NCBI GenBank assembly: GCA_028287765.1
Contig: JAQBPA010000117.1
Span: 40,483-104,482 of the forward strand
DNA from: Bacteriovoracaceae bacterium
Lineage (GTDB): Bacteria; Bdellovibrionota; UBA2394
Direction of reading: 5' to 3'
DNA length: 64,000 nucleotides
This document shows positions 38,354 to 54,026 of the stretch, piece by piece. Position 1 is the first letter of the stretch. The number at the start of each line of letters is the position of its first letter. A program made the translations under genes and the position numbers. The notes beneath the pieces are model-generated. The model had not been told where the DNA came from, did not search any database, and saw only the letters and a program-made list of their open reading frames with translations.

Positions 38354-38878
38354 ATGGAAGACGTTCTCAAGCATCAATGTCCTCAATCGCTAGATGTCCA
38401 TTGGATTGATCATTCATTATTGTTTGGTGCCAAGATTGCGCCAGAATATTTTTCACATCTTTATCAATGTCTCCAAATTAGATTAGTCGTGGACTTAAGA
38501 TCTGAAGATAAGGACGATAAAATTTTATTATCACGCCTCGGTATAAAATTCCTTCATCTTCCAACCGCAGATAGAACTTCCCCTTCAACGGATGATTTCT
38601 ATACAGGCGTTTATGAAATTAAGAAGTCGCTCGCAGCTAACGAGAAAGTTTTTATACATTGTGAATATGGCATTGGCCGCAGTGCTATTCTGGCTTGTGG
38701 TGTTCTTGTGTCTTTGGGAAAAACTCCTCTCGCGGCATTGAACTCGGTGAAGCTTTGCCGCGAAAAAGTCTCGCCAAGTCCCGAACAGCTCTATGGATTT
38801 ATCGAGTGGAGCCTAAGCTGGTACAAAAACTTACGTAGCTCCAATCAAATACACTATTCTGCCGCTTCCAATTTATAA
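38354..38878 (+). CDS. Protein tyrosine/dual-specificity phosphatase
   Basis: The CX5R P-loop is 'VFIHCEYGIGRSAILAC'. Confidence 0.7.
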   Translation: MEDVLKHQCPQSLDVHWIDHSLLFGAKIAPEYFSHLYQCLQIRLVVDLRSEDKDDKILLSRLGIKFLHLPTADRTSPSTDDFYTGVYEIKKSLAANEKVFIHCEYGIGRSAILACGVLVSLGKTPLAALNSVKLCREKVSPSPEQLYGFIEWSLSWYKNLRSSNQIHYSAASNL

Positions 38879-38886
38879 GTGATTAA

Positions 38887-40644
38887 ATGGAATTTTATCG
38901 TGATTATCTTCGCGAAACAGTCACTTCAGACGAAATACAACGATTGGAATCTGAATTCCGGAAGAAAAATCTAAAAAATTTTGAACCAAACATTCACTCT
39001 CATTTATCTCGTCTGCTGATCGAAACAGGCGAACTCTCTCAAGGGCTTCTCGACGACGAGTTTAAAAAAAAGGGTGCAGATGATTGGACAGTAAAAACGG
39101 CGTTATGCTCGAAGCTGACACTCGAAGCCGCTAAGCTTTTTACAAAATCTTATCACTTCTTAGAAAACCCTCGCACAAACGATGACCCTAAGATCGATTC
39201 AAGCAAAATTCTCAAACTCTTTCGCAAACTCAGTACATTTAATCTGCCTTCTCGACTCAAAATAAAAATACCAGAAGGTTATTCCTATTATTCTCTCTAT
39301 CCTGAACAGTATCTTCTCGCCGCAAAAAAACTTCGTGAACGAAGCCGTTCGTCATTTGTTGTAATCGGAATTCGAAGCATAGGCACCAGTCTCGCGAGCC
39401 TGGTCGCAGCCGTATTAGATTCTCAATACTTACCATTTTCTTTTCGACCGATCGGCGAGCCCTTTGATCGAAAACTAAAAACTGAAAAACGTTTACTGGC
39501 CCTCATGCAAGAAAGCGCTAAATCATCAGACTTCGCCGTGGTCGACGAGGGGCCTGGGATTTCGGGAAGTAGCTTTGGCGCGGTTGTGAGTTGGCTTACT
39601 GAAAAGCTAAAGATTGATGTAAAAAGAATTCATCTTTTTCCAAGTCACGATGCAGACCCAGCATTTTTTTTAAACCAGAAACATAAAAAAAAATGGAAAG
39701 CGACCTCACACTATGTCTATTCGTTTGAAGATCTCGTAAGAACATCTTTTCAAAAATATATTTTTCCAAAGCAATCTTCTTGCGAGGAATTAAGCGCGGG
39801 CAACTGGCGTTCGCTTCTTTTTAAAAAAAAGAATCAGTGGCCACCTTCAAATCCCTTTCAGGAACGCAGAAAATATTTAATATCGGTCGGGAAAAATAAT
39901 CTTGTCGCAAAATTCGTCGGCCTCGGGCGTCTCGGTGAAGAGGCATTCAAAAGGGCTAAAATTCTCGAATCCGACGGACTAGCTCCTCCGGTTCATTCCT
40001 ATTCTTATGGATATCTCACACAAAATTGGCTTTCTGCGGCTTCTCCATTATCCGCTGCGTCTGAGGTGGATCGCGATTTACTTCTTCAAACCTTAGGACG
40101 ATATATTCAAAAAACTAAAACGTTCCGAGCGAAAGAGCTCTCTGGAACAAGCGTTCAAGAGCTTTATAAAATGAGCCATCAACTGATCAAGTCAGAGCTC
40201 AATATTTCGACATTTGGCCGCTGGGCTAAATTTCTTCCCGCGATCTTAGCTGAACAAAAAAAAGTAAAGACCGACAATAAAATGCAAAATTGGGAATGGC
40301 TAATTTTACCTTCTGGCAAAATTTTAAAAACGGATGGCCTCGATCATTACAGATCGCATGAAGGTATAGGAGCGCAGGACATCGAATGGGATATCGCCGG
40401 TGCCATCGTTGAGCTGAATCTAAATGAGAGCGAAGAGACAAAGCTTGATCGCTTGCTCGGAATTTCTCAAAGGAACAAAGAGAGTCTCTCTGTTCGAAAT
40501 TTTTACCGAGAGACTTACCTCGCCATTCAATTGGGCATCTGCCTTTCTTCTGCCTCTAAACTCGCAGCTACTTACCCTTTAGAAGCTCAGAGATTTCGAG
40601 CGCTCGCCCGCCAATATTCTGAGAAGCTTCTACTCTGCTTTTAG
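38887..40644 (+). CDS. Hypothetical fusion protein with a PRTase-like N-terminal region and a kinase-like (APH/CotS-type) C-terminal region. The assignment is tentative.
   Basis: The 'VVIGIRSIGTSLASLVAAVL' and 'FAVVDEGPGISGSSFGAVV' segments resemble the PRTase hhhhDD...TG.T loop. 'SHEGIGAQDIEWDIAGAIVEL' and 'VAKFVGLGRLGEEAFKRAKIL' are reminiscent of phosphotransferase-family motifs. It lies 8 nt downstream of the phosphatase. Confidence 0.35.
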   Translation: MEFYRDYLRETVTSDEIQRLESEFRKKNLKNFEPNIHSHLSRLLIETGELSQGLLDDEFKKKGADDWTVKTALCSKLTLEAAKLFTKSYHFLENPRTNDDPKIDSSKILKLFRKLSTFNLPSRLKIKIPEGYSYYSLYPEQYLLAAKKLRERSRSSFVVIGIRSIGTSLASLVAAVLDSQYLPFSFRPIGEPFDRKLKTEKRLLALMQESAKSSDFAVVDEGPGISGSSFGAVVSWLTEKLKIDVKRIHLFPSHDADPAFFLNQKHKKKWKATSHYVYSFEDLVRTSFQKYIFPKQSSCEELSAGNWRSLLFKKKNQWPPSNPFQERRKYLISVGKNNLVAKFVGLGRLGEEAFKRAKILESDGLAPPVHSYSYGYLTQNWLSAASPLSAASEVDRDLLLQTLGRYIQKTKTFRAKELSGTSVQELYKMSHQLIKSELNISTFGRWAKFLPAILAEQKKVKTDNKMQNWEWLILPSGKILKTDGLDHYRSHEGIGAQDIEWDIAGAIVELNLNESEETKLDRLLGISQRNKESLSVRNFYRETYLAIQLGICLSSASKLAATYPLEAQRFRALARQYSEKLLLCF

Positions 40645-40737: not shown

Positions 40738-42588
40738 TTGCGTTTTTATTATCGAGCCTTGTCGTATTTTCGACAAGATTCTGGTCTGATCATTCTACTA
40801 TTAATTTTGACCGCTCTTATAACGGCCTCGGGGCTTCTTATTGCCTGGCCTCTGGCGATCTTGGTCGACTCTGTTTTGGCTCCGGTTCCAAAGAGCGATT
40901 GGATCCACCGAGTTTTTTTGGCTTTGCTTCCCGAAAATAATAAAATGATGCAGATCATCGGCCTCGCATTGATGGGCCTCCTTCTCAAGTTTGCCCAAGA
41001 TATTTTTACAAGCATTCGAACCCTCGTGAATAATGAAATCAATTATAACGGACTACTGAGAGTTCGCTGCGATCTCTTTAAAAAATTGCAATCGCTCTCA
41101 CTCGGCTATCACAACTCGCAACCAGAGGGAGATTCCATTTTTAGACTGAGTACTGACACCTACGGCTGCCAAGCGATTCTCTCGGTGGTCGTCTCAACTC
41201 TCGTCGCCTGTTTAACCTTGATTGCCATGATTTGCATTTTACTTTCGCGAAGCACTCCGCTCACTCTTCTCGCTTTAGCCGTGGTCCCGCCTCTCTTTTT
41301 TGCAAATGTATGGTTTGAAAAAAGACTGAAACGAAAATCCACACGAGCCAAACAAGTCGACTCTGAATTTATGACCAAAGTTCAAAGATCGATTTCTTCG
41401 ATGGGCCTCATCCAGGCGTTTGGACAGGAAAAGCAAGATTTTGAGCACTTTCATAAAACGGCCACCAATAATTTAAAAGCTTGGTGGCATCTCAATCGAG
41501 AAGAAGTTCTCTATACACTAACTGTGGGGGTTATTTTTGGTTTCGGTGCTGCAATCATTTTTGGTTACGGAGGCTACCTTGTTTATCAAAATCAGTTTGT
41601 TTCTCCTCATACCGGCGGACTGACAATCGGCGATCTTATGATTTTTCTTTCGTACCTTACACTTCTCTGGGATCCGATTTGTAAACTCACGGGTGCAAGC
41701 ACAAGCATGCATAGCGGACGCGCGGGATGTGAACGTGTTTTCGAAGTTCTCGATCGTGATTCGGCCATCGTTGATTCTCCAAATGCTGTCAGCCTTGCTC
41801 AAATGCCGAGGACACTTAAGCTGAATGAACTCAGTTTTGGTTACCAGAGTAACCGGCCGATTTTGAAAGATTTAAATCTCGAAATAAAGCCTGGAGAAAT
41901 GGTGGCCTTCGTTGGATCGAGCGGCGTAGGAAAAAGTACTCTCATTAATTTACTGCCTCGATTCTACGATCCGACCTCTGGCTCCATTCACTTAGACGGC
42001 CACGATATGCGTGATATTAAAATTGCAGATCTTCGGCGGCATATTGCCTTAGTGCTTCAAGAAAATATTATTCTTCCGGCGAGTATTGCGGAGAATATCG
42101 CTTACGGTAGACCGTCCGCATCGCTGGATGAAATTAAAAACGCTGCCGTACTTGCCGGCGCTGCCGATTTTATCGAGACGCTTCCCCATGGATACTTCAC
42201 TCAAATTACCGAAAGGGGCCATAATCTCTCAGGCGGCCAGAAGCAAAGAATTTCAATTGCACGCGCTCTTCTCACCGAAGCTCCGATTATTATTTTGGAC
42301 GAGCCGACGAGTGCTCTCGATCCGCATCACGAGTCGGTCATCACTGAAACGCTTCATGCGCTTAAGGGTAAGCGAACCATCATTGTCGTGAGCCATCGGC
42401 TAAGTACTATTCTCGATGCTGATAAAATCTATATGATGATGGGCGGAAAAATAATCGAAAGCGGAACTCATGACGAACTTCTTTCTCAGCGAGGATTTTA
42501 TTATGCGATGGCCCGCCATCAATTAAAACTCGACGAAGGAATTTTTGAATTCCCAAATTCCTCATCTCCCTCGATCTCGAACGCTTAA
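40738..42588 (+). CDS. ABC exporter with fused permease and ATPase (MsbA/PglK-like)
   Basis: Six N-terminal TM segments are followed by Walker A 'GSSGVGKSTLINLL', the signature 'LSGGQKQRISIARAL' and Walker B 'IIILDEPTSALD'. Confidence 0.9.
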   Translation: MRFYYRALSYFRQDSGLIILLLILTALITASGLLIAWPLAILVDSVLAPVPKSDWIHRVFLALLPENNKMMQIIGLALMGLLLKFAQDIFTSIRTLVNNEINYNGLLRVRCDLFKKLQSLSLGYHNSQPEGDSIFRLSTDTYGCQAILSVVVSTLVACLTLIAMICILLSRSTPLTLLALAVVPPLFFANVWFEKRLKRKSTRAKQVDSEFMTKVQRSISSMGLIQAFGQEKQDFEHFHKTATNNLKAWWHLNREEVLYTLTVGVIFGFGAAIIFGYGGYLVYQNQFVSPHTGGLTIGDLMIFLSYLTLLWDPICKLTGASTSMHSGRAGCERVFEVLDRDSAIVDSPNAVSLAQMPRTLKLNELSFGYQSNRPILKDLNLEIKPGEMVAFVGSSGVGKSTLINLLPRFYDPTSGSIHLDGHDMRDIKIADLRRHIALVLQENIILPASIAENIAYGRPSASLDEIKNAAVLAGAADFIETLPHGYFTQITERGHNLSGGQKQRISIARALLTEAPIIILDEPTSALDPHHESVITETLHALKGKRTIIVVSHRLSTILDADKIYMMMGGKIIESGTHDELLSQRGFYYAMARHQLKLDEGIFEFPNSSSPSISNA

Positions 42589-42723: not shown

Positions 42724-43845
42724 ATGAAAGAACGCATTTTGATCACCGGAGGAGCTGGATTTATCGGCTCGCATCTCGCGAAAAAACTTACGGCGTCTGG
42801 CTACTCTGTCCGAGTTTTAGATCTGTTCACACCTCAAGTTCACGGAAACGACGGCTTTCAAAAATCTCTACCATCCTTCAGTCGAGATATAGAAGTGATG
42901 CATGGTGATGTGAGATCTCCAAAAGATATTCGCTCGGCACTTCATCATATGGATGTGGTCTATCATTTAGCGGCTTCCGTCGGTGTCGGTCAGAGCATGT
43001 ACGAAGTGCATTCCTATACAAGCCACAATAATTTAGGAACCGCCAACCTTCTTCAGCAGTTGATTGCTCGCCCCATTCAAAAATTGATTGTGGCTTCCAG
43101 TATGAGCCTCTACGGAGAAGGAAGTTATGTGAGTTCGGATGGAAAAATTCACCATTCGATCCGTCGAAATTTTGCGGAAGTTAAACAGAGAAAATGGGAG
43201 CCTCAATTAGAAGATGGTGAGCCATTAGTTCCCATCATGACGCCGGAATCTAAAGCACCCGACCTATCCTCCATTTATGCTCTTTCAAAATACGACCAAG
43301 AGCGAATGTGTCATACCATTGGCCAAGCTTATAACATTCCAACCGTTTCGCTCCGATTTTTTAATGTTTACGGTCGCGGACAATCTCTTTCGAATCCTTA
43401 CACCGGCGTTATGGCCATTTTTGCTTCGCGACTTCTGAATGGAAGTACACCCACCATTTTTGAGGACGGAAATCAAATGCGAGATTTCGTCCATGTCTCC
43501 GATGTAGTTGAGGCTTGCCAGCTGGCTCTCGAAATTCCCGAAGCGGCCGGAGAAGTTTTTAATATCGGAAGCGGCTCGCACTTTCGAATTCAAGAAATTG
43601 CTCGAGCCATGGCCAAAATGATCGGTGTTTCTCTCGAGCCCGAAATTACAGAGCACTACCGCGTGGGCGATATCCGCCACTGTTTTGCGGACATCTCGAA
43701 AGCAAAGCGCCTGCTTGGCTACAGGCCAAAAGTAAATTTAACAGAAGGACTAGCTGATTTAACTCAGTGGCTCGCGGAACAAACCGCGATCGATCATACA
43801 AAAAGAGCGAGGCACGAACTCTATTCTCGAGGGTTAGCCCTATGA
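42724..43845 (+). CDS. NAD-dependent epimerase/dehydratase (extended SDR, nucleotide-sugar modifying)
   Basis: The Rossmann motif is 'ILITGGAGFIGSHLAKKL' and the YxxxK motif is 'YALSKYDQE'. Confidence 0.8.
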   Translation: MKERILITGGAGFIGSHLAKKLTASGYSVRVLDLFTPQVHGNDGFQKSLPSFSRDIEVMHGDVRSPKDIRSALHHMDVVYHLAASVGVGQSMYEVHSYTSHNNLGTANLLQQLIARPIQKLIVASSMSLYGEGSYVSSDGKIHHSIRRNFAEVKQRKWEPQLEDGEPLVPIMTPESKAPDLSSIYALSKYDQERMCHTIGQAYNIPTVSLRFFNVYGRGQSLSNPYTGVMAIFASRLLNGSTPTIFEDGNQMRDFVHVSDVVEACQLALEIPEAAGEVFNIGSGSHFRIQEIARAMAKMIGVSLEPEITEHYRVGDIRHCFADISKAKRLLGYRPKVNLTEGLADLTQWLAEQTAIDHTKRARHELYSRGLAL

Positions 43846-44909
43846 CACCTTACACACTCATCACCGGAGGCGCGGGATTCATCGGAACCAATCTTGCCGA
43901 TCGACTCGCCTCCTCCGGTGAAAATGTTTTAATTCTCGACAATCTTTCTCGGCAAGGCGTGAAGGCCAATTTGATTTGGCTGCTTCAGAATCATCAAAAA
44001 AAAATTAAGTTTGTTCAAAGGGATATACGTAGTTCGGAACGTCTGGATGAATTAGTGAGTGATGCAAGTAGTGTCTTTCATCTCGCTGCACAGGTGGCGG
44101 TCACTTCCAGTCTCTCTGACCCCATCACGGATTTTGAGATCAATACTTACGGCACACTTCGCTTACTTGAAGCACTTCGAAAATTAAAAAATCCGCCCCC
44201 TCTCATCTATACATCCACCAATAAAGTTTATGGCAATTTAAATGACGTCACACTGCAAGAAACCAAAACAAGATATGAACCCATCGAGAGTGAAATCAAA
44301 AATTACGGAATTGATGAATCAAGAAGATTAGAATTCAGCAGTCCTTATGGTTGTTCTAAGGGCGCTGCCGATCAGTACGTTCTTGATTATTCGAAAACTT
44401 TCGGAATGCCGGCCGTCGTCTTTCGAATGAGCTGTATCTATGGTCCTCATCAATGGGGAAATGAGGATCAAGGATGGATTGCCCATTTTGTAAAACAGAT
44501 GCTCGAAGAAACTCCCCTTACACTTTATGGCAATGGCAAACAGGTTCGCGACACACTTTTCATTGATGATCTGATTGATGCTTTTTTATTAGTGAGAGAG
44601 CAAATTCAAGAACTGAAAACTCAGGCCTTTAATATCGGCGGCGGCCCACAAAATACGACGAGCCTTCTTGAACTTCTCCGGCTTCTTTCAGAAAAAAGCC
44701 AGCACCCCATTGATCTTCGCTACGAAAACTGGAGAACTTCAGATCAGCGTTATTATGTTTCGGACGTTCGTAAATTCATGAGCTCGACTGGATGGTTCCC
44801 TCGGGTAAATCTCGATGAAGGCATAAATCACCTCATTCATTGGATGGGTGATCTAAAAAATATAAAACCTCAAAAAGATTCTCAACAAATTTACGAGGCA
44901 TTCGCTTAA
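43842..44909 (+). CDS. NAD-dependent epimerase/dehydratase (extended SDR)
   Basis: The likely start is MTPYTLITGGAGFIGTNL, an ATGA overlap with the upstream gene, rather than the track start at 43767. The catalytic motif is 'YGCSKGAADQY'. Confidence 0.8.
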   Translation: MTPYTLITGGAGFIGTNLADRLASSGENVLILDNLSRQGVKANLIWLLQNHQKKIKFVQRDIRSSERLDELVSDASSVFHLAAQVAVTSSLSDPITDFEINTYGTLRLLEALRKLKNPPPLIYTSTNKVYGNLNDVTLQETKTRYEPIESEIKNYGIDESRRLEFSSPYGCSKGAADQYVLDYSKTFGMPAVVFRMSCIYGPHQWGNEDQGWIAHFVKQMLEETPLTLYGNGKQVRDTLFIDDLIDAFLLVREQIQELKTQAFNIGGGPQNTTSLLELLRLLSEKSQHPIDLRYENWRTSDQRYYVSDVRKFMSSTGWFPRVNLDEGINHLIHWMGDLKNIKPQKDSQQIYEAFA

Positions 44910-44911
44910 TT

Positions 44912-46039
44912 ATGGAACAAAACATTCGACGTATTCTGATGACAGCGGATATTTTTGGAGGCGTTTGGACGTATACACTCGATCTTGCCAGGGAATTTCA
45001 AAAATTAAATATTCATGTCGGAATCGCAGCTCTAGGAGGAACCCTCGATCGAGAACAACGGCGAGAAGTTTTTTCGATTCCCGATATTGACGTATTCGAA
45101 AGCCGATTTCCGCTTGAATGGATGAATGAGCCATGGTCCGCGCTCGAAGCAGGCAGAGAATGGATTTCTAAACTCGAAGAAAATTTTGCTCCCGATATTA
45201 TTCACCTAAATAGCTTCTGTCATCGCCCCGTAGATCCTGGCTGCCTGCAAGTTATCGTGGCGCACTCTGATGTATTTTCCTGGTACAGCGCCGTTTTGAA
45301 CAAAAAGCCGCCGCCAAAGTGGAATCGTTATTACGAAGAAGTTCAAAAAAGTCTGAATGCTGTGGATCTCGTCATTGCTCCAAGTAAGGCGGCTCTTCGT
45401 GATCTCGAAAATCAATTCGGCCCGCTTCCAAATGAAAAACTTTCTATTCCAAATGGATGCCGCGAAATTGAAGAAATAAATGTGTTGAAAAAAAATAGAA
45501 TTTTAAGTGTAGGTAGACTTTGGGACGAAGCGAAAAATATTTCGGCTCTCGACAAAATAGCTGAACAAATTCCTTGGCCGATTCTTGTGGCCGGAAGTGC
45601 TGAGAGCCCGATGGGTGAGGAGGTGATCCTAAATCATGTTTTTCAACTCGGGCATCTTCCTAAAGATCAACTCCACTATGAATTAGCTCGCGCCAGCATT
45701 TATGTTGCGCCAGCAAAATATGAACCTTTTGGTTTAGGAATTCTTGAGGCTGCACTGAATGGTTGTGCACTGGTCTTGGGAGATATACCAAGCCTTAGAG
45801 AAAATTGGGATGGTGCTTGTGTCTTTGTAGATTCAAATCGTCCTGAAGAAATAAAACATGCACTTCTCGATTTCATTTCAGATCCTGCGAAAAGAAAAAA
45901 GTTTGCTTCGCTCTCTCAATCACGTGCTCAAGAGTTTACGAGCAAAAAAATGGCGGGGAGTTACCTGGATGCTTACGGTTCCCTTCTTAAGAAGTACGGG
46001 CGAGCGTCCGTCTCTCGGGAGGCTGCGTGCGCGTTTTAA
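44912..46039 (+). CDS. Glycosyltransferase family 4 (GT-B, group 1)
   Basis: The C-terminal motif is 'EPFGLGILEAALNGCALVLGDIPSLRE'. Confidence 0.75.
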   Translation: MEQNIRRILMTADIFGGVWTYTLDLAREFQKLNIHVGIAALGGTLDREQRREVFSIPDIDVFESRFPLEWMNEPWSALEAGREWISKLEENFAPDIIHLNSFCHRPVDPGCLQVIVAHSDVFSWYSAVLNKKPPPKWNRYYEEVQKSLNAVDLVIAPSKAALRDLENQFGPLPNEKLSIPNGCREIEEINVLKKNRILSVGRLWDEAKNISALDKIAEQIPWPILVAGSAESPMGEEVILNHVFQLGHLPKDQLHYELARASIYVAPAKYEPFGLGILEAALNGCALVLGDIPSLRENWDGACVFVDSNRPEEIKHALLDFISDPAKRKKFASLSQSRAQEFTSKKMAGSYLDAYGSLLKKYGRASVSREAACAF

Positions 46040-47139
46040 TGTTCTATCATTCACTCGTCTCGGATTGGAACCACGGCAACGCTCATTTTTTAAGGGGAAT
46101 TGCGAGTGAGCTGATCTCTCGTGGCCACGCGGTCTGTATCTACGAACCAGAAAATTCTTGGAGTCGACAAAATCTGATCGAGCGTGAGGGTCAGAGTTCT
46201 ATTGAGGCGTTTCATTCGAGTTATCCTTTTTTAAGGTCAACGGTTTACGATATTGACTCCTTTGATTTTGATACAGCTCTCGACGGAGCGGATCTCGTGC
46301 TCGTTCACGAATGGAATTCTCCCGAGCTCATTCAAAAATTGGGAGATCTACGTTCTGAAAGAAATGATTTTGTACTTTTTTTTCATGACACTCATCACAG
46401 ACTCTCGATGACGCCCTTTGAAATGGCCGGCGTCATCCTTCGAAACTATGACGGAGTACTTGCCTTCGGAAAAGTCATCTCCGATTTTTACCGTGATCGA
46501 CAGAATATCGAGAATGTTTGGACTTGGCATGAGGCCGCTGACACACGAATTTTTTATCCAAGGAAATCGGAAACCACTGGCGATCTCGTTTGGATTGGAA
46601 ACTGGGGAGACGGTGAACGAACTCAAGAATTAGAAAACTTTCTCTTTAAGCCGATAGAATATTTAGGACTCGAAGCTTCCATCTACGGCGTTCGATACCC
46701 AGAGGAAGCAAAAAAGCGACTGGCAGAAGCAAATATCTTTTATGGCGGCTGGATTGCAAATTACCGGGCGCCCGAAATTTATTCGCAATATTTATTCACG
46801 GTTCATATTCCGCGCCGTCATTATGTAGAAAGTCTTCCTGGCATTCCGACGATTCGAGTTTTTGAAGCCCTCGCGTGTGGAATTCCTCTTCTCTCCACTT
46901 TTTGGGAAGATGAAGAAGAACTTTTTACGGCCGGAAAAGATTTTTTAATCGCCAAAAATGAATTTGAAGTTCGAAAATGGATGAAAGCTCTTTCGAATGA
47001 ACCAGCTTTAAGAGCGGAGCTTTCTACCCACGGGCGACAAACTATTTTAAAAAGACATACATGTCGACATCGAGTGGATGAGCTCCTCTATATATATCAT
47101 TCGTATAAGTCGAGGGAGGTTCGATGCATCCCCGCCTAA
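46027..47139 (+). CDS. CgeB-like glycosyltransferase (DUF3880 + Glyco_trans_1_2-like), paralog 1
   Basis: The N-terminal motif is 'FYHSLVSDWNHGNAHFLRGIASEL' and the C-terminal motif is 'RVFEALACGIPLLS'. Confidence 0.55.
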   Translation: MRVLMFYHSLVSDWNHGNAHFLRGIASELISRGHAVCIYEPENSWSRQNLIEREGQSSIEAFHSSYPFLRSTVYDIDSFDFDTALDGADLVLVHEWNSPELIQKLGDLRSERNDFVLFFHDTHHRLSMTPFEMAGVILRNYDGVLAFGKVISDFYRDRQNIENVWTWHEAADTRIFYPRKSETTGDLVWIGNWGDGERTQELENFLFKPIEYLGLEASIYGVRYPEEAKKRLAEANIFYGGWIANYRAPEIYSQYLFTVHIPRRHYVESLPGIPTIRVFEALACGIPLLSTFWEDEEELFTAGKDFLIAKNEFEVRKWMKALSNEPALRAELSTHGRQTILKRHTCRHRVDELLYIYHSYKSREVRCIPA

Positions 47140-48200
47140 AATGGTCGTTCTTCGGATCGAGTCTCGTTTCCGCTTACTGGAATGGAGCAGCCACTTATTA
47201 CCGAGGAATGATTCGCGAACTTTCGAAACTTGGTCATGATATCACTTTTTATGAACCCAATGCTTACGATCGACAAAAAAATCGAGATATTTCAGATCCG
47301 TCTTGGGCAGAAGTAGAAGTTTACGAGCCCAATTTTGATTCGCTTTATCAGATGTTAGAGAAAGCGAAAGGATCTGACGTGATTGTAAAAGCAAGTGGCG
47401 TTGGCGTTTTTGATGAGGAACTCGAAAAATCGATTATCGAGCAGAAGCACTCAAGCAGCACTTCTATTTTTTGGGACGTCGATGCACCGGCGACACTCGA
47501 TCGACTTACGGAAAATTTAGAAGATCCTTTTCATTCTTTAATTCCGCAATTTGATTTTATTTTTACCTACGGCGGAGGCCCTCCAGTCGTAAAAAAATAT
47601 AGCAGCTTTGGGGCGCGCGAATGCACTCCGATTTATAACGCTCTTGATCCCCAAACTCATTTTCCAGTTTTTCCCGAGACTCGATTCTCTGGTACTATTG
47701 GATTTCTAGGAAATCGCTTACCAGACCGTGAAGAACGCGTAGAAAATTTATTTTTTGAATCAGCTCGCCGACTCTCTGATAAAGATTTTGTGCTCGGAGG
47801 AAGCGGATGGGCCGACAAATCGATTCCAGAAAATCTCCGTTATTTGGGTCACGTTTATACACACGAACATAATGCTTTTAATTCTTCTCTACTCTCGGTG
47901 CTTAATATTTCGCGAGATTCAATGGCCCGATACGGTTTTTCTCCCGCAACTCGAATCTTTGAGGCCGCCGGAGCTGGCGCTTGTATTCTCACAGATTCTT
48001 GGGATGGAATCGAAAATTTTCTAGAGCCAGGAAGAGAAATTCTCGTTGTTAAAAATGCGGGCGAGATTGTGGAGATTCTCGACAGTTTATCCACAGCAAA
48101 GGCAAAAAAAATAGGCGAAGCGGCTTTCAAGAGAATCAACAGTGAACATACTTATTCAAAACGCGCAAAAGAAGTGGATTCGATTTTGAGGAATACTTGA
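47124..48200 (+). CDS. CgeB-like glycosyltransferase, paralog 2
   Basis: The N-terminal motif is 'FFGSSLVSAYWNGAATYYRGMIREL' and the C-terminal motif is 'RIFEAAGAGACILTDSWDG'. Confidence 0.6.
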   Translation: MHPRLKWSFFGSSLVSAYWNGAATYYRGMIRELSKLGHDITFYEPNAYDRQKNRDISDPSWAEVEVYEPNFDSLYQMLEKAKGSDVIVKASGVGVFDEELEKSIIEQKHSSSTSIFWDVDAPATLDRLTENLEDPFHSLIPQFDFIFTYGGGPPVVKKYSSFGARECTPIYNALDPQTHFPVFPETRFSGTIGFLGNRLPDREERVENLFFESARRLSDKDFVLGGSGWADKSIPENLRYLGHVYTHEHNAFNSSLLSVLNISRDSMARYGFSPATRIFEAAGAGACILTDSWDGIENFLEPGREILVVKNAGEIVEILDSLSTAKAKKIGEAAFKRINSEHTYSKRAKEVDSILRNT

Positions 48201-49310
48201 ATGGCAGACGATAAATTAAAAATTGTTTTTTGTGGACTCTCTATTACATCGTCTTGGGGAAACGGACACGCTACGACCTACCGATCTCTCGTTCGAGAAC
48301 TCACGCGTAAAGGTCACGACGTTTTATTTCTAGAAAGAGATCAACCTTGGTACGCCAAAAATCGAGATGTCGGAATATCGTCGCTTGGACGAGTGAGGCT
48401 TTACTCTTCTCTAAGTGAGTTGATCGTTCGATTCTCGGAAGATATTCAAACGGCCGATGCGGTCATCGTGGGCTCATACGTTCCGGACGGAGTGAGTATT
48501 GGAAATTGGGTTCTTTCAAAAGCAGGAGGCGTTCGCGTTTTTTACGATATTGATACACCCGTCACTCTCGCAGCGGTCGCATCGAATTCCTGCAAATATA
48601 TTTCGAAAGATTTGATTTCAAAATACGATTTATATCTTTCATTTACAGGTGGACCTTTACTCCAAAAAATAGAAAACGTTTGGGGATCTCCCAAAGCGAG
48701 AGCGTTTTATTGTTCCATTGATGTCGAGCAGTACTATCCCGAGCACAGAACTCCAAAATGGGATTTAGGGTTTTTAGGAACTTACAGTCCAGATCGGCAA
48801 GCAACTCTCGAGCGCCTGCTCCTGGATCCGGCAAGAATTTTAAAAGATTCTCGATTCGTTGTCGCTGGAGCTCAGTTCCCTGAAAATATTCAGTGGGGAG
48901 ATAATATCGAGAGAATTGCTCACCTCGCGCCGCCGGAACATCGCCATTTTTATAATTCGCAAAAATTTACTCTGAACACAACCCGACGCGAAATGCGTCG
49001 CACCGGCTATTCACCGAGCATTCGTCTATTCGAAGCTGCCGCTTGTGGGACGGTCATTGTTTCAGATCCGTGGACCGGTCTGGATGAATTCTTTGAACCA
49101 GATGAAGAAATCCTGATCGCCAGAACTTCAAAGGAAGTGCAAAGAATTTTAACCAAAATGGGAGACGATCAAAGAAGAGAAATTGGAATTAATGCCAGAC
49201 ATCGAGTTCTCTCCGAACATTCCTCCGTTCGTCGAACTGCGGAATTAGAATTTCTTATACGAGAAACATATGCAGAAACATCTCGATTGAGCAGAAAAGC
49301 ATTTTCATGA
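48201..49310 (+). CDS. CgeB-like glycosyltransferase, paralog 3
   Basis: The N-terminal motif is 'FCGLSITSSWGNGHATTYRSLVREL' and the C-terminal motif is 'RLFEAAACGTVIVSDPWTG'. Confidence 0.6.
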   Translation: MADDKLKIVFCGLSITSSWGNGHATTYRSLVRELTRKGHDVLFLERDQPWYAKNRDVGISSLGRVRLYSSLSELIVRFSEDIQTADAVIVGSYVPDGVSIGNWVLSKAGGVRVFYDIDTPVTLAAVASNSCKYISKDLISKYDLYLSFTGGPLLQKIENVWGSPKARAFYCSIDVEQYYPEHRTPKWDLGFLGTYSPDRQATLERLLLDPARILKDSRFVVAGAQFPENIQWGDNIERIAHLAPPEHRHFYNSQKFTLNTTRREMRRTGYSPSIRLFEAAACGTVIVSDPWTGLDEFFEPDEEILIARTSKEVQRILTKMGDDQRREIGINARHRVLSEHSSVRRTAELEFLIRETYAETSRLSRKAFS

Positions 49311-50116
49311 ACGCTGCGAACGAAAGTAATTTTTTTAAAGAAATTCAACAGCTGTCACCGTGGTTCCATAATCTCCACTTCGACGACGGAATCCAAACAG
49401 CGCCCGACCATTTCTTGGGAGATTTTCCAACGAAAAAATGGCAGCAAATCCAAAATGTCATCCCGACAGATCTTAACGGCTGGAACTGCTTGGATATTGG
49501 CTGCAATGCTGGCTTCTATTCGTTTGAACTCGCAAAACGTGGGGCAAGAGTTCTCGGAATCGATTCAGAACCTCATTATCTTAATCAAGCTCGCTGGGCT
49601 TCAAAGATTTACAATCTAAAAAATCCGCCAATCTTTCGTCTCATGCAAATTCACGATCTCGCTCATCTGAATGAGAGCTTCGATCTCATTTTGTTTATGG
49701 GAGTATTCTATCATCTACGATATCCGCTGCTAGCTCTCGATACCATTGCACCCAAGGTAAAAGCATTTATGATTTTTCAAACTCTCACGACGACAAATAA
49801 AAACGACGAGCCCGCTTCGTTTGAGCCCCGAGATAACTATTCATTTGAGGAACGAAGTATATTGAACACTCCTGGATGGCCAACAATGGCGTTCATCGAA
49901 AAATCCTTTTCCGACGATTCCACAAATTGGTGGGTCCCAAGCCATTCTGCTGTCCTCGCTCTTCTTCGCTCGACAGGTTTTTCATCGATCGTACGTCTCG
50001 CACACGAAATTTATATTTGTCGTCCTCCAAAAAAAGGAATTGCCAAGAATCGAATATGGTCTGACGCAGAATGGAAATCTGCAACACGCACAAAAGTAAA
50101 AGGAGAAATAACGTGA
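49307..50116 (+). CDS. Class I SAM-dependent methyltransferase (CmoB/DUF1698-like)
   Basis: Motif I is 'CLDIGCNAGFYSFELAKRGARVLGID' and the post-II motif is 'GVFYHLRYPL'. Confidence 0.65.
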   Translation: MNAANESNFFKEIQQLSPWFHNLHFDDGIQTAPDHFLGDFPTKKWQQIQNVIPTDLNGWNCLDIGCNAGFYSFELAKRGARVLGIDSEPHYLNQARWASKIYNLKNPPIFRLMQIHDLAHLNESFDLILFMGVFYHLRYPLLALDTIAPKVKAFMIFQTLTTTNKNDEPASFEPRDNYSFEERSILNTPGWPTMAFIEKSFSDDSTNWWVPSHSAVLALLRSTGFSSIVRLAHEIYICRPPKKGIAKNRIWSDAEWKSATRTKVKGEIT

Positions 50117-51153
50117 AACATGTCTTAATTACGGGCGGAGCGGGATTCATTGGGTCTCATCTCTGTGATACTTTCATAGCACGTGGTTATGCTGTTACTG
50201 CTATTGATAATTTTCTCACTGGAAAAATATCAAACCTTGACCGGGTAATAAAAAATCCTCATTTCGATTTTTTGAAATGGGACGTATGTGAACCCATTCC
50301 CGTTCAGAAAGTAAGATTTCTTAGTGAATTTGGCCTTCAGGGAATTCTTCACTTCGCTTGCCCCCCGAGTCCTGTTGATTTTGAAAAAATTCCTTTCGAA
50401 ATTCTAAAGGTCGACTCCCTCGGAACAATCAATACCGTTGATCTCGCCATTCAGTATTCAGCTCGCTATCTACTCGCTTCCACTTCAGAAGTGTATGGGG
50501 ATCCACTCGAGCATCCTCAGACTGAAACTTATTTTGGAAATGTAAATTCTGTTGGACCACGCGCGTGTTACGACGAGGCGAAAAGATTCTCGGAAGCCTA
50601 CGTGAGCACAAGTATGCGCGGTCTCGGACTTTATCGAAGTAAAAAATATAAACCGCTCAATGCCGCAATCGTCAGAATTTTTAATACCTACGGGCCCAGA
50701 ATGCGCCAAGACGACGGACGTGTGATTCCAGAATTTTGTACGCAAGCACTTCGAGGGGGAGAACTCCCGGTTTGCGGCGACGGCTCTCAAACTCGAAGTC
50801 TTTGTTTTGTGTCTGATCTGGTGGAGGGAATTGTTCGACTCTTTGAAGGCAATGTTCATAAGCCTGTGAATATTGGAAATCCTGACGAGCGCAGTGTTTT
50901 CGAAATGGCTCGTTTCATTTCGGAATTGGTTTACAAAATGACAGGCGTCTCCTCCAAAATTAAATTTGTACCCGCACGACCTGAAGATCCGAGAAAACGA
51001 AAACCAAATACAGATCTTGCTCAAAAGCTCCTCGGATGGAAACCAAACGTGAGTCTCACAGAGGGACTAAAAATGACGATTCTCTCCATGCAAAATCTCA
51101 TCGCAAGGCCTTTGGCGCATGAAGCCCCGTTTAAAATTCAAAAAGCCCTATGA
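50113..51153 (+). CDS. UDP-glucuronate decarboxylase (UXS)-like NAD-dependent epimerase/dehydratase
   Basis: The GTG start at 50113 is preceded by AGGAG and forms a GTGA overlap with the upstream gene. The Rossmann motif is 'VLITGGAGFIGSHLCD' and the catalytic motif is 'CYDEAKRFSEAY'. Confidence 0.6.
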   Translation: MKHVLITGGAGFIGSHLCDTFIARGYAVTAIDNFLTGKISNLDRVIKNPHFDFLKWDVCEPIPVQKVRFLSEFGLQGILHFACPPSPVDFEKIPFEILKVDSLGTINTVDLAIQYSARYLLASTSEVYGDPLEHPQTETYFGNVNSVGPRACYDEAKRFSEAYVSTSMRGLGLYRSKKYKPLNAAIVRIFNTYGPRMRQDDGRVIPEFCTQALRGGELPVCGDGSQTRSLCFVSDLVEGIVRLFEGNVHKPVNIGNPDERSVFEMARFISELVYKMTGVSSKIKFVPARPEDPRKRKPNTDLAQKLLGWKPNVSLTEGLKMTILSMQNLIARPLAHEAPFKIQKAL

Positions 51154-52076
51154 TCGAAGCCATTAAACTTTGGAACGAACCCAATAATCTTTCTCACTGG
51201 GATTTTACGATAGATCCTGGTTGGAAAGAATTTTCTTATATGACCAAACTGGCTGCCGAAGCGCTGAAAATAATTTATCCCGACTTAACCCTTGTACTGG
51301 GTGGCATTTCTCCGATTGATACGGATTTTCTCAAATTGCTTATACGCGAAAATACTTTAGAAAATTTGGACGCCATCGCTATTCATGGATTTCCGCTAGA
51401 TTGGAATCATTGGAAAATCAATGATTGGCCCAAAAAAATCGCCGCAGTTCAAGCGATTACGCATCTTCCCGTTTGGATTACCGAAGTGGGGGTCTCAAGT
51501 TTTGGTGCAGATGAGATTCAGGAATTTGGACTCATGAGAACAACTGAACTTCTTCTTGGGAAATCAGATCATATTTATTGGTATAGTTTGCTGGATCTCC
51601 CCCCGTCATGGGAAGCAACGACCCGTCATAAAGAAAACGAAGGAAGTTCTTATTACAGACATTTTTATATGGGGCTCATTCGTGCCGACGGAACGCCTAA
51701 GCCAGCTATAAAACATTTCAACCCTGAATTCGGAATCTGCCAGTGGTTTCACTTCGAAGATCCAAGACTCGACTTTGCCGTTGATTGGTTGAAAAAACTT
51801 GGTGTGAGAAAGCTCCGCACCGGCATTAGCTGGGCCGATTGGCGTCGGCCCAATGCTCTTCGCTGGTTCGATCGACAAATGGAAGCGATTAAAGATTTTG
51901 AAGTCACTATTACTCTTTGCTTCACTCCTCCGTCTCGCGGAAAGCGCCCCGACCATACAAGTCCTCCGATGGTCCCAGAAGAATTTGCTGAGTTTGCTTT
52001 GGAAGTCGTAAAGCGCTATGCAGCGCAGATTCACGAAACGCCCCGAAAACTTAGGCTCGTTCATGGATTTAAATAA
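51150..52076 (+). CDS. Glycoside-hydrolase-like TIM-barrel protein (GH5-like motifs, apparently circularly permuted)
   Basis: The protein begins at the strand-4 acid/base motif 'KLWNEPNN'. A nucleophile-like 'VWITEVGVSS' lies mid-protein. A motif usually N-terminal in GH5, 'LGVRKLRTGISWADW', sits near the C-terminus. Confidence 0.4.
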   Translation: MIEAIKLWNEPNNLSHWDFTIDPGWKEFSYMTKLAAEALKIIYPDLTLVLGGISPIDTDFLKLLIRENTLENLDAIAIHGFPLDWNHWKINDWPKKIAAVQAITHLPVWITEVGVSSFGADEIQEFGLMRTTELLLGKSDHIYWYSLLDLPPSWEATTRHKENEGSSYYRHFYMGLIRADGTPKPAIKHFNPEFGICQWFHFEDPRLDFAVDWLKKLGVRKLRTGISWADWRRPNALRWFDRQMEAIKDFEVTITLCFTPPSRGKRPDHTSPPMVPEEFAEFALEVVKRYAAQIHETPRKLRLVHGFK

Positions 52077-53059
52077 ATGCGATCAAGAACGTCGGCGACT
52101 ATTTGAAATTCACGGGCCGATGAATCGAAGCGGCGACTCGATTTTAATTTTTGAACCCACCGAACGGCTGCGCGACCACTCCAGGCATCCGGCGGTTCAC
52201 AGAGTCGACTCGAAGAAGTTCCCAAATATTTTTCAGCAGAAAAATGATAAAATGAACCTGAAATATTTTTAAAACTAAGACCGCCCTTTGTTCCATAAAA
52301 ATTTGCCTGAATAATGGCATCCACCCCAGCCGAGAGATTCCAAGAACAAGCGAGCTGTACAACCGCTCCGTTTGAAAGCCGCAGTGTAGAAAGGGCGTAA
52401 TCCTCTACTTCTTTTGTTCGATCTCGAAGCGGCTTTCCCTTAGAAAATAATTTACTTGAAACGGATTCAATTTTAGGAAAATCCAAAGAATAGAGCGCTA
52501 GATCAATCATATGAATTCCAAGATCCATCACACACCCACCTCCGGAGAGCGCTGGATTATAGAACCAAGCTTTGTCGGGGCCGTAAGCATTATGAAAGAG
52601 AAGATCGATCGCATAAATTTCACCGATTGTTCCACTCTGAATCTCTCGATAGATCGACTCCATCGCCGCCGTATGTCGATAAGATAAGTCGATTCCTAAA
52701 AGACAATCTGCTGTCTCTGCAGCACGAAGGACGGCGGACACTTCACTTGCCGATCTGCCCAAAGGTTTCTGACAAAAAACGGGAATATTTTTTTCGAATG
52801 CTTCTATCGCTTGCTTTGCGTGTTGGGCACTCGGAGTGGCAATCACGATTCCATCTATTTTCTGCTCGAGAAGTTCATCGTAAGATTTAACGGGCTGAGC
52901 AGATGGAAAATCAGAGAGAGCACTCCGTAAGTTTTCTTCGGACGAATCGAAAATAGAATGGATCTCCACTTCCTTTGATTCGGAGAGAGCCTGCATTCGA
53001 TTTTTCCCGATCCAGCCCACTCCCAGAAATCCAAGGCAGGGTTTCGATTTATGATTCAT
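52061..53059 (-). CDS. Gfo/Idh/MocA-family NAD(P)-dependent oxidoreductase
   Basis: The 332-aa ORF has the Rossmann motif 'LGFLGVGWIGKNRMQAL'. Confidence 0.8.
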   Translation of the reverse strand: MNHKSKPCLGFLGVGWIGKNRMQALSESKEVEIHSIFDSSEENLRSALSDFPSAQPVKSYDELLEQKIDGIVIATPSAQHAKQAIEAFEKNIPVFCQKPLGRSASEVSAVLRAAETADCLLGIDLSYRHTAAMESIYREIQSGTIGEIYAIDLLFHNAYGPDKAWFYNPALSGGGCVMDLGIHMIDLALYSLDFPKIESVSSKLFSKGKPLRDRTKEVEDYALSTLRLSNGAVVQLACSWNLSAGVDAIIQANFYGTKGGLSFKNISGSFYHFSAEKYLGTSSSRLCEPPDAWSGRAAVRWVQKLKSSRRFDSSAREFQIVADVLDRIYLNP

Positions 53060-54026
53060 ATTTAATAAAAGCCTTCAGAAATCCTTCCGGTCGATTCATG
53101 GTGGATTCAAAGGCGTCTGAAATCTGATCCAAAAAAAATGAATGTGTCAAAAACTGTGGAGGTGAAATGATTCCAAGAGAAGTCGCGTCGATGGCGGAAT
53201 CGATTCCTTTCAGACAAATTTTTAAATCCCGTTCATGCGCGTTAATCACATCGAGACCCCGCCAGTTCCAAAGTTGCATATTGACCGAGCGCGGCCCATC
53301 TTGATGATATCCCGCAATAACTAGTCGGCCACCCTCTCGAGTTAATTCACCGGCAAGATTGAGAGGCCACTGTTTTCCAACCGCCTCCACCACACAGTCA
53401 AAAAATTTTCCTTCGGTAAGTTCAGAAGCCTTTTTTATAATCTCGCCGTGATCAATCATAGGGATGACTTGATCGGCCCCAAGGTCACTCGCCATCTTTA
53501 AAGCATAATCGCGTCTAGAGATGGCCGTCACCTTTGCCCCGACTTGATGACAGAGTGTCGTAAGAATCGAACCGAGAAATCCAATTCCAATGATGGCGAC
53601 ACTTTCGCCGGAAGATATCTTCATTCGCCTAAATATATTCATAGCGCATCCGAAAGCTTCTCCCGGAAAATTTTGAAAAGATAAATCGTGAGGGATCTTT
53701 AGAACCGACGCTGCCTTCGTGACGTCATATTCTGCATACGCATGATTGGAAAGTGCAGCCACTCGATCGCCAACATTAAATTTCTTAACATTTGATCCGA
53801 GAGCATCGATTGCTCCCCAACCTTCATGGCCGAGTGCACCGGGAGGAAGTGGATAAGTGATCCAGGGCGCTCCACCCCAAGGAACGAGATTCGATGCACA
53901 GACTCCGCAACCCTCCAGTTTAATTCTGACCTCGTCTAATTTGGGTTCCGGAATAGGCGCTTCAGCCATTTCAAAATTTCGAGGGCCCTTGAGCTGAGCT
54001 GCGCGCATAAAGTTTTTCATACACAT
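53049..54026 (-). CDS. Zinc-binding medium-chain dehydrogenase/reductase (MDR)
   Basis: A 'GALGHEGWGAI' GroES-like region and a 'VAIIGIGFLGS' NAD-binding motif are present. Confidence 0.75.
   Translation of the reverse strand: MCMKNFMRAAQLKGPRNFEMAEAPIPEPKLDEVRIKLEGCGVCASNLVPWGGAPWITYPLPPGALGHEGWGAIDALGSNVKKFNVGDRVAALSNHAYAEYDVTKAASVLKIPHDLSFQNFPGEAFGCAMNIFRRMKISSGESVAIIGIGFLGSILTTLCHQVGAKVTAISRRDYALKMASDLGADQVIPMIDHGEIIKKASELTEGKFFDCVVEAVGKQWPLNLAGELTREGGRLVIAGYHQDGPRSVNMQLWNWRGLDVINAHERDLKICLKGIDSAIDATSLGIISPPQFLTHSFFLDQISDAFESTMNRPEGFLKAFIKYES

Follow-up and report, generated by a model that had tools for sequence, protein, structure and literature searches.

Which reaction could a small phosphatase and a large protein of no named family carry out together, when they are encoded only a few nucleotides apart? 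The question is raised by a stretch of 64,000 nucleotides from a Bacteriovoracaceae bacterium (contig JAQBPA010000117.1 of assembly GCA_028287765.1; "the window" below means this whole stretch), in which a gene for a 174-aa dual-specificity phosphatase (DSP) is followed, after a spacer of 8 nt (GTGATTAA), by a gene for a 585-aa protein. An earlier note on this DNA described the pair as a CX5R tyrosine/dual-specificity phosphatase and a fusion of phosphoribosyltransferase (PRTase)-like and kinase-like parts, that might serve small-molecule metabolism, signalling or toxicity. The follow-up presented here finds a DSP-type phosphatase together with a PRTase-like/choline kinase (ChoK)-like fusion protein, genetically tied to a glycan cassette that is linked to inositol phosphate. 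At somewhat less than even confidence, we read the two as cytoplasmic enzymes whose substrate would be an intermediate of small-carbohydrate or cyclitol type, combining kinase, phosphoribosyl transfer and phosphatase activities within a conserved cassette that is connected with myo-inositol phosphate.

The 585-aa protein and its family

The two open reading frames (ORFs) stand where the earlier note had placed them (coordinates and strands of all features are given in Table 1), and the larger one belongs to an extensive family. A sequence with 100% identity to its product is recorded as a hypothetical protein in a Bacteriovoracaceae metagenome-assembled genome (MAG), and 887 homologues were found at E ≤ 0.001 among the word-indexed candidates that were scored, the listed ones ranging from 1e-92 to 1e-105. 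An exhaustive profile search with the family returned 2,923 clusters (50% identity), of which 1,633 scored below 1e-30; among the 150 clusters listed, most are full length, at about 560–620 aa. Both ORFs are real genes and not chance reading frames; the motifs named in the earlier note coincide with the columns that the family conserves best. Database records name the homologues "hypothetical protein", one UniRef record being labelled "aminoglycoside phosphotransferase", and the view that the pair is not a standard annotated system agrees with the lack of any Pfam model for the 585-aa protein and of any NCBIfam or PADLOC model. Designed pentatricopeptide-repeat proteins, which came up as candidate relatives (whole-sequence E 6e-5), were rejected as a summation artefact, in which a single stretch of 30 residues (FAGLGRYG..LAEAGLiPpV) weakly matches every repeat.

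The structure of the protein was predicted with AlphaFold2 from a 38-sequence alignment (predicted local distance difference test score, pLDDT, 89.7; predicted TM-score, pTM, 0.91). Residues 1–296 were also folded alone (pLDDT 88.5) and then compared with the Protein Data Bank (PDB) by Foldseek. The model predicts a three-part architecture, composed of a mainly helical N-terminal domain, a PRTase-like middle domain and a kinase domain of the ChoK/aminoglycoside phosphotransferase (APH) type. Conservation was read from 126 diverse representatives of the family, with a mean column identity of 35%, and the figures given below refer to this set.

The choline kinase/APH fold is strongly indicated by the model for the C-terminal half. 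In the Foldseek search with the whole model, the best PDB match was LicA (4r7b, E 6.9e-9, probability 1.0), 77 hits lay at E ≤ 1e-3, and all 50 of the 50 listed hits were small-molecule kinases, i.e., choline kinases (human and Plasmodium), NahK, macrolide and aminoglycoside phosphotransferases, methylthioribose kinase and maltokinase. The kinase-like character proposed earlier for the C-terminal third is thus retained as to the fold, but its assignment of SHEGIGAQDIEWDIAGAIVEL to the Brenner catalytic loop is not: this segment corresponds to the post-DFG motif, and its spacing, G-x-x-D-x-x-x-D-I-A-x-A, is identical to that of GVADRYQDIALA of APH(3')-IIa, the sequence of which was verified. 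In this motif G495, Q497, W501 and D502 do not vary, and 125 of the 126 sequences have E509. From the order of secondary structure elements in the model we infer that the catalytic loop is T-D463-N-K-x-x-x-W-E470-W, which sits just before the strand 471–473, and that Mg is bound by L-K-T-D483. D463 is invariant, position 465 is R or K and position 470 is E in 125/126 each; in the Mg-binding candidate K481 and D483 are invariant, while D486 and H487 are kept in at least 92%. The near-invariant E470, at +7, may replace the Brenner Asn. K329 and K/R342 are also among the most conserved positions of the kinase domain, and the K or R at the β3 position resembles choline kinases. The Pfam families APH (PF01636) and Choline_kinase (PF01633) gave no match for the window protein (E ≤ 0.1) or for 38 family members (E ≤ 1).

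For the middle domain, the predicted structure modestly supports a type I PRTase-like fold, as the earlier note had suggested. Among the top 50 Foldseek hits of the model of residues 1–296, 35 have this fold (OPRT, XGPRT, HGPRT, APRT, PurF, PurR and the ppGpp-binding PRTase-fold protein 5vog), with about 150 aligned columns, a maximum probability of 1.0 and a maximum target-normalised TM-score of 0.54; Pfam Pribosyltran (PF00156) matched neither the window protein nor the 38 members. Three conserved segments are found where a PRTase would have its substrate loops. The pyrophosphate (PPi)-loop-like motif VVIGIRSIGTSLA, beginning with VVIGIRSIG (residues 158–166), resembles by eye IIAVSRGGLVPGALLA of Escherichia coli XGPRT, whose sequence was verified; G161, R163, S164 and I165 are kept in at least 90% of sequences, and G166 and L169 are invariant. 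The loop FRPIGEPFDRK (R187, P188, G190, P192 and R195 in at least 96%) falls opposite the XGPRT flexible loop in an hhalign alignment that is weak and non-significant. In the segment resembling the loop that binds phosphoribosyl pyrophosphate (PRPP), FAVVDEGPGISGSSFGAVV, G222 and P223 are invariant and D220, E221, G224, S226, G227, S228 and S229 are present in at least 96%, so that the pattern FAVV-DE-GPGI-SGSS is nearly invariant, with Gly-Pro-Gly in place of hydrophobic residues. H254 is a further most-conserved position of this domain. The N-terminal helical domain, for which Foldseek found no convincing structural match in the PDB, carries a conserved patch, GEL-QG-x-D, in which D56 is invariant.

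Positions that are invariant or nearly so gather in those loops that should make up the two active sites, and because these putative active-site loops are the most conserved in the family, this argues that both domains are functional. The earlier note had named the lack of a PRTase or kinase hit in profile searches as an outcome that would refute it; for sequence profiles this is literally what was found, and it is structure comparison alone that rescues both folds. Since the protein fails both sequence-membership tests, it is not filed in the APH/Choline_kinase or the Pribosyltran families. By the model it is a new architecture and a new family made from known folds.

The phosphatase and its pairing with the 585-aa protein

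The 174-aa protein matches Pfam DSPc (PF00782) with an E-value of 1.4e-10 and 41.6 bits against a cutoff of 33.5, and other DSP-PTPase families match it more weakly. With its CX5R P-loop intact it is, judged by sequence, an ordinary member of the DSP family, in agreement with the first description of this gene. Its closest solved relative is PTPMT1 (2.6e-7), a phosphatidylglycerophosphate phosphatase, which acts on a lipid phosphate and not on protein; the context likewise argues for a non-protein substrate of the window DSP. No signal peptide or membrane segment was predicted in the DSP or in the 585-aa protein, and both appear soluble and cytoplasmic. Scans for promoters and terminators around the gene pair scored at the level of shuffled sequence and gave no information.

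The partnership was followed through a set of related loci, made of 80 loci from species-representative genomes, the loci of identical proteins and the annotated Sinorhizobium meliloti megaplasmid, which was searched using each protein of the window as a query, as well as families that the other loci have and the window lacks. A DSP orthologue of 40–46% identity, sharing the motifs LHLPTxD, HCEHGIGRS and VSPSPEQ, is encoded directly upstream and co-directionally in 15/84 loci of other species (Myxococcus, Pyxidicoccus, Corallococcus, Cystobacter, Microvirga, Enterovirga, a Beijerinckiaceae MAG, Variovorax and three MAGs that bear no label beyond Proteobacteria or delta proteobacterium), so the pairing spans Myxococcota, Alpha- and Betaproteobacteria. 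Conservation of the two as neighbours, which the earlier note had named as a check, is thus found in several phyla, but it is only partial. In Myxococcus, Pyxidicoccus and Cystobacter the DSP and the 585-aa homologue are free-standing among unrelated genes, and because the pair stands alone there, this argues that the two form a functional unit. Long ORFs that looked like DSP-585 fusion proteins in high-GC loci were discarded as frame-extension artefacts.

A different phosphatase seems to take the place of the DSP elsewhere. A histidine phosphatase (His_Phos_1, 3.6e-45) is encoded in 16 other loci and no locus has both enzymes; in a neighbour-joining tree of the 585-aa proteins (built without bootstrap) DSP-linked and histidine phosphatase-linked members are interleaved, and in Variovorax, where myo-inositol-1-phosphate synthase (MIPS) occurs without the histidine phosphatase, a DSP is found instead. 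The mutual exclusivity, the interleaving and the Variovorax swap are read as non-orthologous displacement of one required phosphatase activity. In a Bdellovibrionales MAG (L001/L002, 4184-5950 and 9784-11859), a 588-aa haloacid dehalogenase (HAD) protein (Hydrolase_3/S6PP-like) is encoded two genes upstream of the homologue, which is directly followed by a GH13 alpha-amylase-family gene; this HAD protein, seen close to the homologue in this lineage only, may represent a third type of partner phosphatase.

The inositol link and the conserved cassette

MIPS is encoded within 10 kb of the homologue in 34/84 loci, often immediately adjacent to it. In loci of the Rhizobiaceae type a short MIPS and then the histidine phosphatase lie divergently, about 250 bp upstream of the homologue, and in Thermoanaerobaculia a long MIPS lies co-directionally, about 400–500 bp downstream. 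The histidine phosphatase, where present, always directly follows MIPS. The two forms of MIPS, one of about 365 aa with Inos-1-P_synth only and one of about 440–470 aa with NAD_binding_5 and Inos-1-P_synth (L016, L049, L065, L085 and others compared with L009 and L017-L030), come from different phyla and stand in different orientations. Two MIPS forms and orientations beside one 585-aa family thus imply that the linkage was assembled independently.

Further genes of the window recur in these loci, the cassette-block genes lying within 10 kb of the homologue in 14–29 of the 84 loci with 33–64% identity. Each of the three CgeB-like glycosyltransferases (GTs) is found in 28 loci, each of the three short-chain dehydrogenase/reductases (SDRs) in 27 and the Glyco_hydro_cc-like gene, with about 63% identity across phyla, in 27–29. 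A pair of Gfo/Idh/MocA oxidoreductase (Gfo) and Zn-dependent alcohol dehydrogenase (Zn-ADH) genes, often immediately adjacent to the homologue, is present in 16–17 loci, the GT4 gene in 16, the TIGR04290 methyltransferase in 14, a nucleotidyltransferase module (59–65% identity; beside a CgeB-like GT in 11) in 12 and a B12 radical SAM gene in 6. In 59/83 loci one or more of the cassette genes are found within 10 kb. On the S. meliloti plasmid CP050512.1 (L085:10620-13095) the cassette is abutted by a gene for a polysaccharide pyruvyl transferase and by one for an FrhB-like "coenzyme F420 hydrogenase", a hint that the cassette product may be pyruvylated in rhizobia. Records of 63 Sinorhizobium megaplasmids also contain the homologue, as do 9 Roseomonas plasmids, several of them from human skin or clinical samples.

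Proposed function and precedents

In the mechanism that we tentatively favour, the kinase domain would transfer phosphate from ATP to a hydroxyl group on a small molecule, such as a sugar or an inositol-type alcohol, and the middle domain, as a divergent type I PRTase, would bind PRPP or another 5-phosphoribosyl compound and most likely transfer the phosphoribosyl group onto the same pathway intermediate. The DSP would then strip a phosphate from the product, a step for which other lineages would use the histidine phosphatase; the precedent for it is the removal of the 5-phosphate after PRPP-dependent ribosylation. The gene structure, the folds, the conservation of the loops that resemble active sites and the genomic linkage are shown; we infer that both domains are catalytic, as well as the order of the steps, PRPP as the ligand and the nature of the acceptor, and take an inositol-linked glycoside as the most likely working substrate.

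Ribosylation of an aminocyclitol by BtrL/BtrP has reportedly been described and may serve as a precedent. Systems in which PRPP-dependent O-phosphoribosyl transfer is followed by a dedicated phosphatase are gPRT-PRP and DPPRS (Rv3806c) with Rv3807c (PMC11127046), and CriT-CrpP of the Haemophilus influenzae type b (Hib) capsule polymerase Bcs3, in which CriT has a PRTase-like core decorated with helical bundles and O-ribosylates a polyol (PMC10299916). The window pair would share with all three a PRPP-transferase-type module that is genetically coupled to a dedicated phosphatase within a glycan pathway. With CriT it has in common a PRTase-like core joined to a helical part, and with gPRT-PRP and CriT-CrpP the close linkage of transferase and phosphatase, which are fused or adjacent there and separated by 8 nt here, with the DSP upstream in the 15 loci described. 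However, none of those systems contains the kinase fusion of the 585-aa protein.

The single domains show a similar mixture of likeness and difference. With LicA, APH and ChoK the 585-aa protein would share the bilobal fold, an invariant catalytic-loop Asp and Mg-binding Asp and the post-DFG G-x-x-D-x-x-x-D-I-A-x-A; yet its family has T-D-[NG]-[RK]-x-x-x-W-E-W in place of the Brenner His/Asn motif, lacks a Pfam match and a conserved αC Glu, and is fused to PRTase-like and helical domains. The type I PRTases are approached by the α/β core, by G-I-R-S-I-G in a strand-loop-helix at the PPi loop and by the acidic pair with S-G-S-S at the PRPP site, but the matches are weak (E at least 3.9e-3), the PRPP loop has an insertion of one residue and an unrelated helical domain stands in for the hood. 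Two-step pathways of a glycosyl-phosphate synthase and a phosphatase are also comparable, i.e., MshA/MshA2 in mycothiol synthesis, GpgS/GpgP, in which GpgP belongs to the histidine phosphatase family, and sucrose-phosphate synthase/phosphatase. The MshA/GpgS-type pathways resemble the cassette in the logic of MIPS, GT4 and a dedicated phosphatase whose family varies between lineages; however, the window GT4 is not detectably closer to MshA/PimA than to glycogen-type GT4s, and this scheme gives the kinase/PRTase protein no role. The cassette itself recalls the neighbourhood of TIGR04290, a family presumably associated with a conserved "oligosaccharide" cassette of several genes, one of them for a B12 radical SAM enzyme: the window methyltransferase passes the cutoff of this model and the annotation pipeline PGAP gives the same name to the gene of the S. 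meliloti cassette, but the family is defined computationally only and the 585-aa protein has no model. In the searchable literature, no description was found of the PRTase-APH domain combination, of the TIGR04290 cassette or of the S. meliloti MIPS cluster.

A bolder variant of the same chemistry would be a soluble analogue of the mycobacterial conversion of decaprenylphosphoryl 5-phosphoribose (DPPR) to decaprenylphosphoryl ribose (DPR) and decaprenylphosphoryl arabinose (DPA). A phosphomonoester, either inositol phosphate from MIPS or the product of the protein's own kinase domain, would attack PRPP in the PRTase-like domain to give a phospho-linked ribose 5-phosphate, the DSP or the histidine phosphatase would remove the 5-phosphate and the oxidoreductase pair would epimerise the pentose, giving a new class of pentofuranosyl donor, neither nucleotide nor lipid, for the CgeB-like GTs. 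We consider this variant decidedly improbable.

Weighing the alternatives

Several observations count against phosphoribosyl transfer coupled to dephosphorylation as the function of the pair. By sequence the domains are hard to recognise: no family of Pfam (down to E ≤ 0.1) or NCBIfam is found in the window protein, a lax Pfam scan (E ≤ 1) of 38 family members gave no recurring APH, Choline_kinase or PRTase signal, phmmer and family-profile hmmsearch against all PDB sequences found no real relative, and hhalign of the family alignment was not significant against E. coli XGPRT (E 0.17, aligning VIDD with VVDE) or APH(3')-IIa (E 0.36), both reference sequences having been checked against PDB entries 1A95 and 1ND4, respectively. 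The Foldseek E-values of the PRTase-fold matches, obtained with a predicted model, range from 3.9e-3 to 0.1 with none below 1e-3, gPRT and CriT show no detectable sequence similarity and are not among the top 50 structural hits, and the PRPP-loop-like motif has one residue more than the canonical hhhh-DD-hh-x-TG-x-T. In the kinase domain the Brenner His is replaced by Thr, Ile or Val, the +5 position (Asn) is mostly Ala or Pro and no conserved αC Glu was seen across the 126 sequences; moreover, a simple scheme of ribosylation and dephosphorylation has no necessary role for a kinase. The phosphatases of gPRT-PRP, CriT-CrpP and DPPRS are of the HAD or PAP2 type, whereas here a DSP and elsewhere His_Phos_1 is found, and the histidine phosphatase is coupled to MIPS and not to the 585-aa gene, so the phosphatase may act on inositol phosphate itself. 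As regards the context, 24/83 loci lack any cassette gene in the surrounding 10 kb, a linked PRPP synthetase is missing from the 86 loci and from the window, linked ribose-related genes are missing too, and MIPS of either type is absent from the 64 kb of the window, as are a B12 radical SAM gene and a histidine phosphatase. MIPS may lie elsewhere on the 123-kb contig or in the genome, or the organism may take up inositol.

The position of the histidine phosphatase directly behind MIPS, and of MIPS beside the 585-aa gene, would fit another course of events, in which the phosphatase, DSP or histidine phosphatase, frees inositol from the inositol 3-phosphate made by MIPS, the Gfo and Zn-ADH enzymes make an isomer or keto-derivative of it and the kinase phosphorylates it again, the PRTase-like domain being a non-catalytic module that takes up a nucleotide or phosphosugar, whether for regulation or for substrate binding, comparable to PurR or PyrR. 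The Gfo protein resembles IolG (1e-30), a match of IolM type (2e-21) is found for the Zn-ADH, the two often lie directly beside the homologue, and the PRTase-fold regulator PurR and the ppGpp-bound 5vog are among the structural matches; in streptidine biosynthesis, too, a cyclitol is dephosphorylated, oxidised and re-phosphorylated by an APH-like kinase. However, hardly any positions of the protein vary less than those of the PRPP- and PPi-loop-like motifs, and a module with a regulatory role alone would not usually be so conserved; a DSP and a kinase in a free-standing pair, as in Myxococcus, would run a futile cycle unless their regiochemistry differs, and the nucleotidyltransferase of the cassette is RmlA-like and not an inositol-phosphate cytidylyltransferase. 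Such a re-activation of a cyclitol, the main rival, is unlikely, with some real chance of being correct. That LicA, a phosphocholine-decoration kinase, is the best structural match, and that the window cluster is rich in GTs and has an exporter, might instead speak for a kinase that decorates glycans in the manner of LicA or WaaP, phosphorylating a sugar or substituent of a finished oligosaccharide while the phosphatase edits the mark, the product being a phosphorylated glycan. This would leave the invariant PRTase-like domain unexplained, no LicD-type transferase was detected, the nucleotidyltransferase looks like RmlA, and the pair is also found away from the cassette; we judge this idea improbable.

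The two proposals of the earlier note that concern signalling and toxicity fare worse still. A kinase-like fold and a phosphatase of the protein tyrosine phosphatase superfamily encoded side by side might form a protein kinase/protein phosphatase signalling pair that regulates the cluster, but the listed structural neighbours of the kinase are small-molecule kinases without exception, PTPMT1 acts on lipid phosphate, the proteins have no sensor or receiver domains and the DSP is interchangeable with the MIPS-coupled histidine phosphatase; a signalling module is thus poorly supported and very improbable. A toxin, defence or antibiotic-resistance kinase (HipA- or APH-like) with a neutralising phosphatase could appeal to the APH fold and to the UniRef record with an aminoglycoside phosphotransferase label. 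Against it, neither protein has a PADLOC match, mobile-element and toxin-antitoxin architecture are missing, and the synteny with genes of glycan and inositol biosynthesis is stable and looks vertical across phyla, so the proposal finds no support and we give it hardly any credence. Enzymatic action of the pair on a carbohydrate or cyclitol intermediate, by phosphorylation, phosphoribosyl transfer and dephosphorylation, is the reading kept, as tentatively as stated at the outset.

The gene neighbourhood in the window

An array of co-directional genes starts with the pair (Table 1). The exporter gene that follows it adjoins a 585-aa homologue in only 1/84 other loci and is essentially specific to the window genome, and the other loci show no conserved exporter, flippase or lipid-carrier transferase. 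Should the exporter carry the cassette product out of the cell, the predatory-bacterium lineage of the window may treat that product in another way than the other lineages do. The methyltransferase of the cassette block scores 307.7 bits against the cutoff of 300 of TIGR04290 (meth_Rta_06860). Two candidate assignments were rejected: the cassette nucleotidyltransferase is not an inositol-phosphate cytidylyltransferase but RmlA-like, of the sugar-1-phosphate type, and the GT4 is not MshA- or PimA-like, having weak GlgM/GlgA-type matches only.

Table 1. Features of the gene pair and its surroundings in the window (positions are those of the window).
Feature	Position	Strand	Basis
DSP (protein tyrosine phosphatase superfamily), 174 aa	38354..38878	+	Pfam DSPc, motifs, synteny
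General-acid loop LHLPTAD, residues 67-73, acid Asp D73	38552..38572	+	LHLPT-x-D in 15/15 syntenic orthologues
P-loop HCEYGIGRS, CX5R intact (C103, R109)	38657..38683	+	orthologues keep HCEHG[IV]GRS
585-aa three-domain protein, unnamed family	38887..40644	+	profile search, AlphaFold2 model
N-terminal mainly helical domain, residues ~1-118	38887..39240	+	AlphaFold2 secondary structure
Predicted type I PRTase-like α/β domain, residues ~119-294	39241..39768	+	Foldseek on AlphaFold2 model
PPi-loop-like motif VVIGIRSIGTSLA, residues 158-170, strand-loop-helix	39358..39396	+	conservation, 126 sequences
Conserved loop FRPIGEPFDRK, residues 186-196, at PRTase flexible-loop position	39442..39474	+	conservation
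PRPP-loop-like motif FAVVDEGPGISGSSFGAVV, residues 216-234, strand then helix as in PRTases	39532..39588	+	conservation, AlphaFold2
Predicted ChoK/APH-fold small-molecule kinase domain, residues ~295-585	39769..40641	+	Foldseek
Candidate catalytic loop TDNKMQNWEW, residues 462-471; D463 putative catalytic base	40270..40299	+	secondary-structure order, conservation
Candidate Mg-binding segment ILKTDGLDH, residues 479-487, DFG/IDxE equivalent	40321..40347	+	follows strand 479-481
Post-DFG helix motif SHEGIGAQDIEWDIAGAIVEL, residues 490-510	40354..40416	+	conservation, APH(3')-IIa spacing
MsbA/ChvA-like ATP-binding cassette (ABC) exporter	40738..42588	+	Pfam ABC_membrane and ABC_tran; NCBIfam MsbA, glucan-exporter-like
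Cassette block, in gene order: 2 SDR epimerase/dehydratases, GT4, 3 CgeB-like (Glyco_trans_1_2) GTs, TIGR04290 methyltransferase, UXS/RmlB-like SDR, Glyco_hydro_cc-like	42724..52076	+	Pfam, NCBIfam
IolG-like Gfo/Idh/MocA oxidoreductase, Zn-dependent dehydrogenase, UDP-glucose 6-dehydrogenase	52061..55450	-	profile matches
CgeB-like GT fused to RmlA-like nucleotidyltransferase	55590..57419	+	profile matches

Some details of single genes may be added. The second SDR ORF (43767-44909, +) was given a mechanical GTG start at 43767, which makes it overlap the preceding gene over 79 nt. Translation probably begins instead at an ATG in the same frame at 43842 (MTPYTLITGGAGFIG), just before the Rossmann GxGxxG; this ATG shares 4 nt (ATGA) with the stop of the preceding gene, which suggests translational coupling. 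The Glyco_hydro_cc-like protein (51150-52076, +; other examples are L003:9755-10642 and L085:13008-13970) is the best-conserved product of the cassette, with about 60–68% identity to proteins of Myxococcota, Acidobacteriota and Proteobacteria, which exceeds that of the GTs and by far that of the 585-aa protein (about 35%). Its Pfam match is weak (8e-5) and S. meliloti records call it "beta-xylosidase". Upstream of the pair, a 246-aa ORF (34663-35403, +) has a hydrophobic, signal-like N-terminus, no Pfam match and no counterpart in the 84 related loci.

Significance

The family of the 585-aa protein occurs in bacteria that live in soil or with plants and belong to at least five phyla, with members in Methylobacterium, Azospirillum, Variovorax and Myxococcus, on pSymB of S. 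meliloti and on plasmids of clinical Roseomonas mucosa, and it has no family model or described function in the libraries searched. For the present it is to be seen as an uncharacterised biosynthetic enzyme and not as a demonstrated new principle; it is widespread and present in genetically tractable hosts. The protein would join two chemistries that are not known as fused, ATP-dependent phosphorylation and PRPP-type transfer. Solving the role of the pair would assign functions across the whole cassette, and could reveal a new route by which cyclitols or sugars are activated or decorated.

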